A stretch of DNA of 64,000 bases from Verrucomicrobiales bacterium (GCA_018003315.1 JAGNEJ010000011.1:4807-68806); one strand, 5' to 3'. Positions 42,575-49,095 are shown, counted from the stretch's first letter. Translations and numbers: made by a program. Notes: generated by a model not told the origin, from the letters alone.

Positions 42575-43770
42575 CCCCTCGGCAGCAATCCATTTGCCCA
42601 AAAAGATCACCTTGTTTCGCCTGGCGTTGGTCACTCGCTCTTCAGATCCCGCAGCGCATAGAGGCCGGCCCCGCGCTCCAGCATCCGCAGCCGCCGCGCG
42701 CCGCTGGTCCGTTTCGCGCCAAACCGCTCCCGCGCACCGGCAAACACCGCATCGACAAATTCCCGGCTCCCCACCACTGCCCCCGCCGTGAAATTCCGCA
42801 CCCGCAGCCGCACCACATCCGCCAGCCGCAGTTTGCCGCCGGATTGCAACACTTGTTCAATCTGCTCCACCGCAAATCCTTTCCTTCCAGGGGTCTTCCC
42901 ATCGGCTTTCACCTCCTGACCTTCCCAGTAGATCCATTTTCGGTAAATGCCCTGCGCCTCGTACCACCGCATCGCTGCTGCCTCCTCCAGTTCCTGCCGG
43001 TGCAACGCCCCCACGGCCATGGCGATGCCCTGCCGCGCTTTGCGCCCTCCGCCCACGGCTTCCCCGTACCCGCTCCAGCGGTATTCCTTCGGATCCTGCA
43101 CCAGTCCGGCCCGGACCGGATTCAGATCAATGTAGGCCGCCATGGTCGCCACCGCATGGCCCGCCCCTTCCACCAGCACGCTAGCAAAACGCTCCTCCCA
43201 CAGCGTCCCCTTGCGTCCGTGCGTTTTGTTGTACCATTTGGAAAATCCCAGCTTCAACGCCTGCACAAAGGCGCTCAGATCAAACATGCGCTTCCACAGC
43301 GCCGCCAGCACCTTTGAAATCTCTTCTGCACACCCGTTGCTGCGCCACAGGGCAAAAAGCTCCCGGTACTGCCGCGCCTTCCGCTTGCCGAACGCCTGCT
43401 CCAAATGCCCCAGCATTGCCTCCTCATCCAACATCTGCTCAGGCCGCTCCGGCACCTCCACCAGGATGTGGAAATGGTTGGACATCAAACAGTAGGTGAT
43501 GACCCGCAGCCCCCCGAAAGCCTCGAACTGCCGCATCAGTCCGCGAAACACCCGCTGCCCCTCCTCATCGAACCAGAACGCCCGATTGACAATGCGGCTG
43601 GTAACATGAGCCAGCATCCGCTGACCCGAAGCAGGACGAAACCGATAGTGCGAAGCCATGACGGGGAGCGTCATTTAAAAAGGCTCGAAGTGCAACATTT
43701 ATCTTAATGAATCGTCTGGCATTTATCTACGGGCGCTGGCCCCGCCGCATCTTGGCTCGGTGTCGGCTGT
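42575..43770 (-). mobile_element. IS200/RAYT-like repeat unit, copy A (boundaries approximate)
   Basis: Similarity to copy B extends ~55 bp beyond the stop and ~90 bp upstream of the ATG, judged by manual alignment. No terminal inverted repeats were seen. Confidence 0.4.
42631..43674 (-). CDS. HUH/Y1 transposase-like protein (IS200/REP-associated tyrosine transposase-like), copy A, 347 aa
   Basis: HUH motif YCLMSNHFHILV and a Tyr-containing helix TMAAYIDLNPVRAGLV..YRWSGY. It differs from copy B by ~34 substitutions and no indels. Confidence 0.8.
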   Translation of the reverse strand: MTLPVMASHYRFRPASGQRMLAHVTSRIVNRAFWFDEEGQRVFRGLMRQFEAFGGLRVITYCLMSNHFHILVEVPERPEQMLDEEAMLGHLEQAFGKRKARQYRELFALWRSNGCAEEISKVLAALWKRMFDLSAFVQALKLGFSKWYNKTHGRKGTLWEERFASVLVEGAGHAVATMAAYIDLNPVRAGLVQDPKEYRWSGYGEAVGGGRKARQGIAMAVGALHRQELEEAAAMRWYEAQGIYRKWIYWEGQEVKADGKTPGRKGFAVEQIEQVLQSGGKLRLADVVRLRVRNFTAGAVVGSREFVDAVFAGARERFGAKRTSGARRLRMLERGAGLYALRDLKSE

Positions 43771-44159
43771 TCGTGCACTCGACCATTTGCCACCGCGTCA
43801 CCGCCCAGGCTGGTCGTTTCCACCCAGCCGGTGGCGATTGTCAGGAAAATCAGGAGAAGGTGCGGGCGCATGTCAGCGGGTGTTGGGCAGGGGCAATTTA
43901 CATTAAGACTGCATCATGGTGCCATCAGGTAATTTCCGCAGGCACCAATCACCGCAGACCTGTAAATCGACAACCCCTCTAAATTTCTGCAACCCGCGCA
44001 GGACACGGCGTTTTCCTATGTCGGCGTGAGCCTCCGATTTGGAATTCCAAGGTTTCTCTGCGCCAACCGATCCGCTGCCGCGTTCGATTCGCATTTGCTT
44101 CCCACTCCATCTCCCCTACGTTTCCTCCTACACCACGTCCGTGCTGATTCTATGAGCCA

Positions 44160-44193
44160 CCGTTCTCCGTTCTCCGTTCTCCGTTCTCCGTTC
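44160..44193 (+). repeat. heptanucleotide tandem repeat (CGTTCTC) x4 plus a partial unit
   Basis: Read directly: four perfect units at 44161-44188 and the partial unit CGTTC at 44189-44193. The repeat begins 9 nt after the ATG at 44152. Confidence 0.9.
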
Positions 44194-44227
44194 GATCACG
44201 GGCGTTCTGACACTGGCTGCGGGTGGG

Positions 44228-46876: not shown

Positions 46877-47829
46877 AACCACCTGCGACACTCGGCGTAT
46901 TCCTCAGGCTGGCGGTAGTTTTGTCAGTGCTTTGGGGATTTTTAGCAACCAATTCGCCAGCAGTGCCTGTTCCCCTGCCAGACTGGGTAAGGCCCATCGA
47001 ATCGTCCTTGCCTAAAGTAACGCCGGAGGTGATCTCGGAAGTGGACGACATTTATTTATCCATCCTCAGGAATACGGAGTATTATGAGCTTCCTGACCGC
47101 ACAGCGAAAATCCGATCCAATGTGACGCGCCTCGTCGTGCTGAGGGAGCAGGCCGACTTGGCCATGATCTGGCAATATCTTAAGTTTACCATGGGTGAAG
47201 GACCAAAATTTCCTGGGATTTTAGATGTGTTAAAAAAAGACAGGGACGTTGCGGCTAGGCTCCTCCCTATCATCCGCTTTAGAATGGAATTATTCCAGCA
47301 GGCCATCAGAGAACAAAAACTGAAAGAGTTTTTCCTCTCGCAAAAAGGCGATGTAGGTGGTGAAATAGGTCAAATGCGGAGCTACTTGATCCACCAAGGA
47401 GAGAGAGCCGATATTGAGAATCTTTATCGAATCTGTGAGGAATTTTACAAGATCGGTTATAATTTTTATCCATATAGCGAACGCCTTCCAGATCACCTCA
47501 AGGAGATGGAGGAAGTGAGGAAGCTGGGCGAGCAGGCGGATGAGCCGTATTGGCTATCGGAGGCGCAGCATTGGATTTCATTTGGCGTTCTTACTGCTGA
47601 GGTTCTCAAGACCGCACCTTCATTACCCAATACCGGCGAGGGTAACCGCCGCCCGCAGCCGCTGGGGCCCAGGCAGCCGCTCTCCCAAGGCCCGAAGCCC
47701 CTCCCTGACGAAAATCAGGAGCCTTGGACAACTCGAAATTGGCCCATCTGGATCTTGATCGGTCTGGCGGCGGCGGGACTTCTCTGGCTGTTGGTTAAGC
47801 GTAAGCCTTTGATGCACCGCCATCGTTGA
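46873..47829 (+). CDS. hypothetical protein with signal peptide and C-terminal TM anchor (cassette gene 2)
   Basis: Its ATG overlaps the upstream stop (ATGA). The N-terminus is MKPPATLGVFLRLAVVLSVLWGFLA and the C-terminus is WPIWILIGLAAAGLLWLLVKRK. The gene is ~40% GC. Confidence 0.6.
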   Translation: MKPPATLGVFLRLAVVLSVLWGFLATNSPAVPVPLPDWVRPIESSLPKVTPEVISEVDDIYLSILRNTEYYELPDRTAKIRSNVTRLVVLREQADLAMIWQYLKFTMGEGPKFPGILDVLKKDRDVAARLLPIIRFRMELFQQAIREQKLKEFFLSQKGDVGGEIGQMRSYLIHQGERADIENLYRICEEFYKIGYNFYPYSERLPDHLKEMEEVRKLGEQADEPYWLSEAQHWISFGVLTAEVLKTAPSLPNTGEGNRRPQPLGPRQPLSQGPKPLPDENQEPWTTRNWPIWILIGLAAAGLLWLLVKRKPLMHRHR

Positions 47830-47899
47830 ATTTTTCCCGCTGGGGGCGGTTTGGGAGGGGTTCAGGCCGCTGGGTGCTGGGCGACAGTCGCGCTCTGCT

Positions 47900-49095
47900 C
47901 GGCGCAGGCGGCGGGGGCAGCGTGGGCACGCTCTGGTTAAAAGAAAATGCCATATGAATTATAAGAAAACTATTGCGCCACGGGCATTTTTGAATGAGGC
48001 TCCCCGCCATGGCTTCGCACTACCGGTTTCGTCCTGCTCTGGGCCGGCGGATGCTGGCTCATGTTACCAGCCGCATTGTCAATCGGGCTTTCTGGTTCGA
48101 TGAGGAGGGGAAGCGGGTGTTTCGCGGACTGATGCGGAAGTTCGAGGCTTTCGGGGGGCTGCGGGTCATCACTTACTGTTTGATGTCCAATCATTTCCAC
48201 ATCCTGGTGGAGGTGCCGGAGCGGCCGGAGCAGATATTGGATGAGGAGGCAATGCTGGGGCATTTGGAGCAGGCTTTCGGCAAGCGGAAGGCGCGGCAGT
48301 ATCGGGAGCTTTTTGCCTTGTGGCGCACCAATGGGTGTGCGGGGGAGATTCCAAAAGTGCTGGCGTCGCTGTGGAAGCGGATGTTTGATTTGAGCGCCTT
48401 TGTGCAGTCGGTGAAGCTGGGGTTTTCCAAATGGTATAACAAAACCCACGGACGCAAAGGGACGCTGTGGGAGGAGCGTTTTGGCAGCGTGCTGGTGGAA
48501 GGGGCGGGCCATGCGGTGGCGACCATGGCGGCCTATGTGGATTTGAATCCGGTCCGTGCCGGGCTGGTGCAGGATCCGAAGGAATACCGCTGGAGCGGGT
48601 ATGGGGAAGCCGTGGGCGGCGGGCGCAAAGCGCGGCAGGGCATCGCCATGGCGGTGGGGGCGCTGCACCGGCAGAAGCTGGAGGAGGCAGCAGCAATGCG
48701 GTGGAACGAGGCGCAGGCGGTGTATCGGAAATTGATTTACTGGGAAGGTCAGGAGGTGAAAGCCGATGGGAAGACCTCAGGCAGAAAAGGATTTGCGGTG
48801 GAGCAGATTGAACAAGTGTTGCAATCCGGCGGCAAACTGCGGCTGGCGGATGTGGTGCGGCTGCGAGTGCGGCATTTCACGGCGGGGGCAGTGGTCGGGA
48901 GTGGGGAGTTTGTTGACGAAATCTTCGCCGGTGCGCGGGAGCTATTTGGGCCGAAGAGCACGAGCGGAGCACGGCGGCTTCAGATGTTGGAGCGCCAGGC
49001 CGGGCTGTATGCGCTGCGCGATTTGCGCAATAGTTGAAGACGAAACAGGGCAGCCCAAGATGAGTGGAATAGCGGCTGCCTTGTGGCTTCGTTGC
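47900..49095 (+). mobile_element. IS200/RAYT-like repeat unit, copy B (boundaries approximate)
   Basis: Inverted relative to copy A. The shared upstream block is AATGCCA.A.GA.T.AT...TTGC...TTTT..ATGA, and the shared downstream block is CGAAACA.GG...GCTGCC. Confidence 0.4.
47994..49037 (+). CDS. HUH/Y1 transposase-like protein (IS200/REP-associated tyrosine transposase-like), copy B, 347 aa
   Basis: It has the same motifs as copy A (YCLMSNHFHILV, TMAAYVDLNPVRAGLV) and ~90% amino-acid identity to it. Confidence 0.8.
   Translation: MRLPAMASHYRFRPALGRRMLAHVTSRIVNRAFWFDEEGKRVFRGLMRKFEAFGGLRVITYCLMSNHFHILVEVPERPEQILDEEAMLGHLEQAFGKRKARQYRELFALWRTNGCAGEIPKVLASLWKRMFDLSAFVQSVKLGFSKWYNKTHGRKGTLWEERFGSVLVEGAGHAVATMAAYVDLNPVRAGLVQDPKEYRWSGYGEAVGGGRKARQGIAMAVGALHRQKLEEAAAMRWNEAQAVYRKLIYWEGQEVKADGKTSGRKGFAVEQIEQVLQSGGKLRLADVVRLRVRHFTAGAVVGSGEFVDEIFAGARELFGPKSTSGARRLQMLERQAGLYALRDLRNS

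Follow-up and report, generated by a model that had tools for sequence, protein, structure and literature searches.

Two related genes for long Y1/HUH transposase-like proteins stand in inverted orientation around a two-gene cassette in a stretch of 64,000 nucleotides (nt) from a Verrucomicrobiales bacterium (GCA_018003315.1, JAGNEJ010000011.1:4807-68806), which was analyzed as a whole and is referred to as the window. This arrangement probably reflects two independent, old placements of a multi-copy Y1 unit, similar to TnpAY1 subclass 2.3, around a variable gene pair, and no evidence was obtained that the Y1 pair in the window constitutes a new cargo-moving transposon. The copy number of the unit in the source metagenome-assembled genome (MAG), its boundaries, the non-sister relationship of the two window copies, the purifying selection on the family and the solitary state of copies elsewhere were all observed directly. 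An earlier note, made from the sequence of the window, had described the inverted pair, had doubted that it forms a textbook composite transposon, and had offered as alternatives an inversion or recombination substrate, cargo trapped between two independent insertions, or a new cargo-mobilizing arrangement. The second of these fits best.

The left Y1 gene (MBP7949060.1, 342 amino acids [aa]) occupies 42631..43659 on the minus strand and the right Y1 gene (MBP7949064.1, 342 aa) 48009..49037 on the plus strand. The two genes are divergent and point outward, with about 4.2 kb and two co-oriented genes between them. The corresponding maximal open reading frames (ORFs; 42631-43674 on the minus strand and 47994-49037 on the plus strand) encode 347 aa each and align with zero indels, differing at 33 residues, where the earlier note had counted about 34, and at 101 of 1,044 nt, 59 of the 101 being third codon positions. 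Other copies of the family have no ATG at the first position, and the conserved start is therefore Met6, which yields the annotated 342 aa. A repeat search of the window returned inverted arms of 1,064 nt (42643-43706 and 47962-49025), 90% complementary and with 4,255 nt between them. In blastn, this match extended to 1,082 nt at 90.1% identity with one gap (42643-43724 against 49025-47945), in agreement with the roughly 90% identity first estimated. These arms are the only pair of large repeats in the window, and identical runs between them measure 80, 50, and 42 nt.

The window pair belongs to a family of at least 15 loci in the source MAG, as determined by cluster look-ups, with protein identities of 82-95%, although contigs break inside partial copies and some copies of higher identity may be hidden. 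Family members were found on at least 12 further contigs of the same MAG (KA004_ locus tags, MBP79xxxxx proteins). The contigs that carry copies measure 250,658 nt (three copies), 176,548, 77,805 (two copies, the window pair), 68,954, 57,905, 30,262, 28,214, 28,156, 18,186, 16,406, 9,764, and 4,748 nt, and several partial copies lie at contig ends. The left protein is closest to copies on the contigs of 4,748 nt (95% identity), 9,764 nt (94%), and 57,905 nt (93%), whereas the right protein is at most 92% identical to any copy and 91% identical to the left one. The same picture emerges from the DNA: the left gene shares 95.6% nucleotide identity (synonymous divergence, dS, 0.12) with the copy on contig L011 and 93.1% (dS 0.20) with that on L087, but only 90.3% (dS 0.30) with its partner in the window. 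Since the left copy is nearer to outside copies than to the right one, the pair is neither a local duplication nor homogenized by gene conversion, and sliding windows revealed no tract in which the left and right copies are uniquely similar. Two independent insertions are what such scattered loci and such divergences would lead one to expect.

Among five copies (the two in the window and those on L011, L012, and L087), the ratio of nonsynonymous to synonymous divergence (dN/dS) ranged from 0.11 to 0.18 across all ten pairs, at dS values of 0.12 to 0.8, and every full-length copy of the family has an intact ORF. These values show purifying selection that acts on each copy individually, and they suggest that each of them is maintained. 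The intactness of the two window copies had initially been attributed to selection or gene conversion; the first of these proposals is supported by the data (dN/dS 0.17), the second is not.

The unit that has been dispersed is small and has one sharp edge. In the five copies, similarity starts at one common point, a few bases before the sequence ATGCCAG, and the DNA upstream of this edge is unrelated among them. The last bases of these 5' flanks are GTAG, GTAG, ATAG, AAAG, and AAAC. The conserved leader of 70 nt corresponds to 43660..43730 (minus strand) in the left unit, as defined by the five-copy alignment, and to 47938..48008 (plus strand) in the right unit, as defined by pairwise and five-copy alignment and by blastn. 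The similarity between left and right thus takes in about 56 nt ahead of the first ATG, or 70 nt ahead of Met6, as far as positions 43730 and 47938; upstream similarity had been correctly noted but placed at about 90 nt. At the other end, similarity ceases approximately at the stop codon, and what lies beyond is a short GRCGAAACARGG patch, with 3' flanks that are not significantly alike, in place of the roughly 55 bp of shared sequence that had been proposed. The unit common to the window pair consequently measures about 1.1 kb, not 1.2 kb, and is made up of the 70-nt leader, an ORF of 1,029 nt, and a tail that is short where present. The 3' flanks of the copies are unrelated except for 48 nt common to the closest pair: the tail of the left unit (42583..42630, minus strand) matches the 3' flank of the L011 copy at 41 of 48 nt and is shared with that copy only.

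The best sign that the Y1 unit arrived by insertion comes from L011, where the leader edge cuts an ORF of the IS630 type at ...NFVE; this truncated ORF has a helix-turn-helix (HTH) region (HTH_23/HTH_32) and no DDE domain. The surrounding segment (positions 1-3652 of L011) contains an ISL3 DDE fragment, a gene for a 790-aa hypothetical protein, the truncated IS630-type HTH ORF and then the Y1 copy, and resembles a dumping ground for pieces of mobile elements. No terminal inverted or direct repeats scoring above shuffled sequence were detected around the single copies in any of the five cases. The flanking hairpins or repetitive extragenic palindromic (REP)-like sequences for which the earlier note had recommended a search did not materialize either: the 64-kb window contains no REP-like multi-copy short palindromes, and folding of all four flanks of the window copies gave z-scores of -1.5 to +0.8, none of them significant, with few readable flanks for covariation. 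One notable stem of 11 bp with an 18-nt loop (49043-49083) lies directly past the stop codon of the right gene; its z-score is only -1.5, and it has no counterpart after the left copy. Rfam returned no matches in the window, and promoter scanning found sites no more frequently than in shuffled sequence and none in the leaders.

The solitary status of copies elsewhere was checked at three loci. At L012/L006, a single Y1 copy is located between dnaX and hypothetical genes; at L087, a single copy lies between a PQQ propeller gene and a trehalose-phosphatase gene; and at L011, a single copy stands behind the insertion sequence (IS) fragments. None of the genes neighboring the copies on L011, L012, and L087 is related to the cassette. 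Conversely, the locus carrying paralogs of the cassette (L089, 18.8 kb, with two tandem paralogs of its first gene) has no Y1 gene. The bracketed unit did not turn up a second time, and the cassette was met only at the window locus. Scattered copies with no association to cargo were named in the earlier note as an outcome that would count against its proposal, and this is essentially what is seen, with at least 15 loci and a solitary unit at each of the three examined. Chance appears sufficient to account for the neighborhood of two copies: for 15 copies and a total of about 4,200 genes, a figure that was assumed and not measured, our own arithmetic predicts about 0.2 pairs within four genes of each other (P ~0.18), which makes the adjacency statistically unremarkable.

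SNHFHILV, the HUH motif, is present in both window proteins along with the Tyr helix MAAY[IV]DLNPVRAG, as recognized earlier from the sequence, and their WE motif is LWEE. Pfam PF01797 (Y1_Tnp) matches both ORFs with E values of 1.6e-9 and 7.2e-9 (38.4 and 36.2 bits, cut-off 23), and residues N61, H62, F63, H64, and Y176 are invariant in an alignment of 40 sequences. An AlphaFold2 model generated from 40 homologs (pLDDT 78, pTM 0.80) shows the HUH core, in which helices at residues 79-147, an insert of about 70 aa, separate the strands at 62-69 and 159-163; a tail of about 140 aa follows. A search of the PDB by sequence gave nothing significant, and only the fold search was informative: the best Foldseek match was 4ER8, the E. 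coli TnpAREP (TM score of 0.73 normalized to the target). Matches to 4ER8, 2XM3, and 2VJV all had a probability of 1.0, with the ISDra2 and IS608 TnpA structures ranking after 4ER8. The sole NCBIfam match was REP_Tyr_transpos (NF047646) at 61.1 and 58.2 bits, below its equivalog cut-off of 80. By motif, Pfam match and predicted TnpA fold, the proteins are members of the HUH/Y1 superfamily, with Y176 as the putative catalytic Tyr on a C-terminal helix. Judged from sequence features, namely motifs, length, insertion, multi-copy habit, and lack of REP sequences, they fit TnpAY1 subclass 2.3.

Relatives of this protein are numerous. At E <= 1e-30 and full-length coverage, 738 clusters formed at 50% identity match it, and a word-indexed search matched more than 7,000 clusters formed at 90% identity; the few matches that bear an organism name are from Verrucomicrobiota. 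A scan of contigs from representative genomes, a set that does not include the source genome, returned relatives of 43-56% identity plus a 29-residue fragment at 83%.

The bracketed cassette consists of two genes on the plus strand. Gene 1 (KA004_05355, 44228..46876) has an ORF of 882 aa, annotated as 737 aa, with a match to Pfam TSP3_bac and an HExxH-type motif near the C terminus. Over residues 1-291, its product shares 80-85% identity with three proteins encoded by the same MAG (P0263, P0264, and P0265), and the similarity then stops abruptly, the proteins being unrelated beyond. At the DNA level, 44160-45081 is 86% identical to the two tandem paralogs in L089 (9894-10815 and 15124-16034), and the remainder of gene 1 is unique. 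Gene 2 (KA004_05360, 318 aa, 46873..47829), whose start overlaps the stop of gene 1, encodes a protein with hydrophobic N- and C-terminal segments for which no match was found in Pfam, NCBIfam, or PADLOC; the PADLOC scan as a whole returned no matches. The GC content drops from about 61-66% to 54-56% and reaches its lowest value, 45%, in gene 2. The cassette had been called foreign, a description that holds at most for a part of it: the first 291 residues of gene 1 have paralogs in the same genome, and only the distal part, of lower GC content, looks compositionally foreign. The spacer between the left unit and gene 1 (43731..44151) is unique, with no similarity to the cassette genes, the flanks, or other loci, and a search of 43731-44160 against genes 1 and 2 for a relic of gene 2 beyond the left Y1 copy gave nothing at either the DNA or the protein level.

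The gene 1 family is modular, in that about 290 N-terminal residues, including the TSP3 repeat, are conserved and are followed by unrelated C-terminal regions. HExxH-type motifs occur in two members, and a different small ORF follows each member. This layout recalls polymorphic toxin/immunity loci, but none of the domains identified is a toxin domain. Just after an ATG at 44152 lies a heptanucleotide tract, (CCGTTCT) x4.9, at 44160..44193 on the plus strand (Tandem Repeats Finder, 100% matches), which has 13.7 and 2.9 units in the two L089 paralogs (9832-9927 and 15127-15146). In all three genes, as assembled, the ATG that precedes the tract, at the signal-peptide end, is out of frame with the main ORF, and in the window gene the loss of one unit would restore the frame. 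From its sequence, the tract is a candidate slipped-strand phase-variation switch.

Taken together, these data would be accounted for by a lineage-specific, multi-copy family of long Y1/HUH proteins with a RAYT-like fold, whose single-gene units of about 1.1 kb have been dispersed to at least 15 sites, presumably by the Y1-type single-strand mechanism that the fold implies. Two such units would have settled independently and in opposite orientation in the permissive space that separates recG from the convergent CPBP gene. The pair that they bracket would consist of a modular, putatively secreted protein, of which the N-terminal third is common to its paralogs and the rest is unique and of lower GC content, and of a downstream partner gene. 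The arrangement may then have no consequence other than leaving the 4.2-kb segment passively open to inversion through RecA. Homologous inversion between the Y1 arms is physically possible; it would be rare at 90% identity, and none was observed.

Several observations sit uneasily with independent placement. An empty site was not recovered: the earlier note had suggested looking for one through recG-CPBP synteny, and the nearest relative (L010, with a recG 76% identical) shares synteny on neither side; look-ups for exact matches to P0001, P0003, P0255, and the gene 2 product also gave none. The copies are intact, with dN/dS values of 0.11-0.18 at a dS of up to 0.8, and in this they are unlike passively decaying IS; such a pattern of maintenance would be out of the ordinary for a selfish insertion sequence, and this name may be inappropriate for the Y1 unit. 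There is, moreover, a short inverted homology of 75 nt that the chance placement of Y1 units does not explain. Its left arm, s-L (42499..42573, minus strand), begins 58 nt past the stop of the left Y1 gene and has the core TGAATTTTTCCCACTGGG at 42530-42547. Its right arm, s-R (47800..47876, plus strand), consists of the last 30 nt of gene 2 and the 47 nt that follow; 61 nt separate its end from the right unit. The homology accordingly encloses the left Y1 copy and the cassette (42499-47876, 5.3 kb), with the right copy outside. The arms are about 70% identical, their local alignment score is 45 compared with a shuffle maximum of 28, and the blastn E value is 1e-5. The cores of the two arms match exactly save for one degenerate position, and the 18-nt core TGAATTTTTCCCRCTGGG has two exact matches, and three with at most three mismatches, where 0.09 are expected. 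No further copies of s were present in about 126 kb of same-species DNA. A scan of metagenome contigs with TGAATTTTTCCCRCTGGG returned 74 matches from unrelated habitats, which is about the number expected by chance, and none lay beside a Y1 homolog.

The last point of this kind concerns three Logan contigs from three different runs (L007, L008, and L009), all of which end at 42546, within the core of s-L, a point 163 nt past recG and 85 nt short of the left Y1 gene's stop codon. These stops could mean that an alternative junction exists in natural populations. By our own inference, the sequence produced by an inversion between s-L and s-R would part from the assembled one at 42548, no more than two bases from the stops. 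A genomic repeat starting near 42517 may explain the stops equally well.

What these signals leave room for is chiefly a segment that is flipped in a regulated or recurrent manner, with either the Y1 copies or the s-L/s-R arms serving as recombination sites. The inverted geometry and the runs of identity between the Y1 arms are what such a switch would need, the near-exact core shared by s-L and s-R and the contig ends lying 1-2 nt from the divergence expected of a crossover between them point in the same direction, and gene 1 comes from a variable family that looks phase-variable. Nevertheless, no isoform was observed, a divergence of 10% between the repeats strongly depresses RecA recombination, and a flip between outward-pointing genes moves no obvious promoter, the leaders being devoid of promoter-like sites; the other MAG assembly just breaks inside the repeat, and a genomic repeat beginning near 42517 would account equally well for the contig stops. 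Such an invertible segment is thus considered unlikely. A related scenario casts s-L and s-R as the terminal inverted repeats (TIRs) of a 5.3-kb, TIRtron-like element that spans 42499-47876 and has the left Y1 gene and two cargo genes inside it, in which case the right Y1 copy would be an unrelated neighbor. Inverted arms of significant similarity and the existence in the literature of TIRYT-type Y1 genes with terminal inverted repeats (PMC3733652, PMC6006769) speak for it. However, the arms are only about 70% identical, and s-R takes in the coding end of gene 2; s has no other copy in the same-species DNA searched, the other copies of the Y1 unit are not flanked by inverted repeats, and GGGGWSAS is absent from s, leader, and tail by eye, no pattern search having been run. 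An element bounded in this way appears very improbable. Equally improbable is a more far-reaching proposal, namely that the Y1 paralogs, instead of being selfish insertion sequences, are individually maintained single-stranded DNA recombinases acting at short sites like s-L and s-R and flipping or exchanging the variable module of gene 1; were it true, the locus would represent a Y1-driven cassette-shuffling system, with the stops at 42546 marking the point of cleavage or the junction.

The remaining two explanations are further from the data. Two related transposase-like genes that bracket genes of lower GC content invite comparison with a composite transposon in which both copies jointly move the cassette. 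A transposase of the IS608/ISDra2 type cuts out one DNA strand, for which it needs a left end and a right end that both lie on that strand; in the window, the two Y1 genes turn their 5' ends toward the cassette, so that no such pair of ends encloses it and joint mobilization would not be expected. The window copies are also not sisters, the other copies examined are solitary, and the cassette has no second location, nor are its paralogs flanked by Y1 genes. The doubt expressed at the outset about a textbook composite transposon was therefore justified, and the proposal of a new cargo-mobilizing arrangement, with a Y1-free L089 and no second bracketed unit, receives no support; concerted movement by the two copies is highly unlikely. 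The least plausible account is a local inverted duplication kept alike by gene conversion. The copies are adjacent, both are intact, and they align free of indels, as a duplication would have it, but three copies located on other contigs are nearer to the left copy than the right one is, the dS within the pair exceeds that to outside copies, and no tract of unique similarity was detected. Two independent, old placements of the Y1 unit hence remain the probable explanation.

The chromosomal neighbors on both sides, proposed earlier from the sequence, are supported by Pfam. On the left, recG (40308..42383, plus strand; 691 aa as annotated, with a maximal ORF from 40242) matches RecG_wedge, DEAD, Helicase_C, and RecG_dom3_C, and its product is 100% identical to the recorded protein P0121 (MBP7949059.1). 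On the right, the gene for a CPBP/Rce1-like intramembrane protease (49191..50675, minus strand) matches Rce1-like at 1.5e-21, and the NCBIfam CPBP models match it below their cut-offs. The two genes are convergent and flank the gap that holds both Y1 units and the gene pair. A contig of a second assembly (L088) begins at window position 47987, that is, with a break inside the Y1 repeat, and on it the right Y1 copy and the CPBP gene are still adjacent. A variant of gene 2 with one substitution is present on a 3,841-nt contig of the other assembly. These two contigs indicate that the locus is present in at least two strains and that assemblies fragment at the repeats.

The strains represented by the window and by L088 are 99.7% identical. 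Of 29 single-nucleotide polymorphisms (SNPs), 14 are grouped at either edge of the right Y1 gene (47998-48046 and 49040-49076), and its 1-kb interior is identical between the two. The 5' cluster is at the extreme beginning of the L088 contig, where it may stem from a chimeric assembly, and the 3' cluster coincides with the stem-loop region past the stop codon. Elsewhere in the window, several direct repeats of 73-79% identity, spaced by about 1,955 nt, occur at 32723-35799 and correspond to two tandem paralogous genes. Judged by eye, this repeated DNA may encode a GVVFGDIGTSPLY-type motif like that of KUP potassium transporters.

The family described here constitutes a large expansion, to at least 15 loci in one Verrucomicrobiales genome, of poorly understood long Y1/HUH proteins resembling subclass 2.3, and neither REP sequences nor terminal inverted repeats nor clear hairpins were found with them. 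The purifying selection on its copies is relevant to the question of whether proteins of this kind act as transposases or come from domesticated genes. Clear parallels exist with subclass 2.3 of TnpAY1, which is characterized by the motifs NHYH, WE, and YVDLNP, a median length of 325 aa, an insertion of about 55 aa between beta3 and alphaC, and a long two-part tail, and which occurs mainly in Chromatiales and Alteromonadales at just over 5 copies per genome, with no REP sequences and no known function (Quentin et al. 2018, PMC6006769). The window proteins are likewise long (342 aa compared with the median of 325), have the WE and Y[IV]DLNP motifs, a large insertion in the core, and a long C-terminal tail, and their family is multi-copy, of moderate identity, and has no REP-like structures around the gene; this likeness is drawn from the published description. 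They differ in the Verrucomicrobiales host, in the number of loci, and in having NHFH instead of NHYH, which is one conservative change.

Resemblance to other systems is partial. With the RAYT/TnpAREP proteins (4ER8), the window protein shares its best structural match, a Tyr helix of the Y-x-x-x-N-P type, and a match to REP_Tyr_transpos. In contrast to REPtrons, however, this family has no flanking REP or REPIN sequences, comprises many copies of twice the length, and scores below the NCBIfam cut-off (61 versus 80); RAYTs are typically present in one copy per genome and are vertically inherited (Bertels et al. 2017, PMC5581495). The HUH/Y1 fold and the dispersal of many units, each of one gene and with its 5' end defined, recall the TnpA of the IS200/IS605 family (IS608, ISDra2), from which the window family departs by having no Y-x-x-x-Q motif, by a length of 342 aa and not about 150, by an intragenomic identity of 82-95% and not about 99%, and by copies that are individually under purifying selection; folding of the four flanks in the window showed no significant subterminal hairpins. 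TIRYTs and their TIRtrons (Di Nocera et al. 2013, PMC3733652) also feature long, RAYT-like Y1 proteins having no association with REP sequences, but single copies of the present family have no flanking terminal inverted repeats, GGGGWSAS was not seen by eye in leader or tail, and the only short inverted repeat (s-L/s-R) encloses 5.3 kb including cargo and is unique to the locus. Classical composite transposons such as Tn5 and Tn10, formed by pairs of DDE IS, similarly have related, inverted transposase genes around passengers; the locus differs from them in the class and mechanism of the enzyme, in its non-sister copies, and in showing no evidence of movement as a unit.

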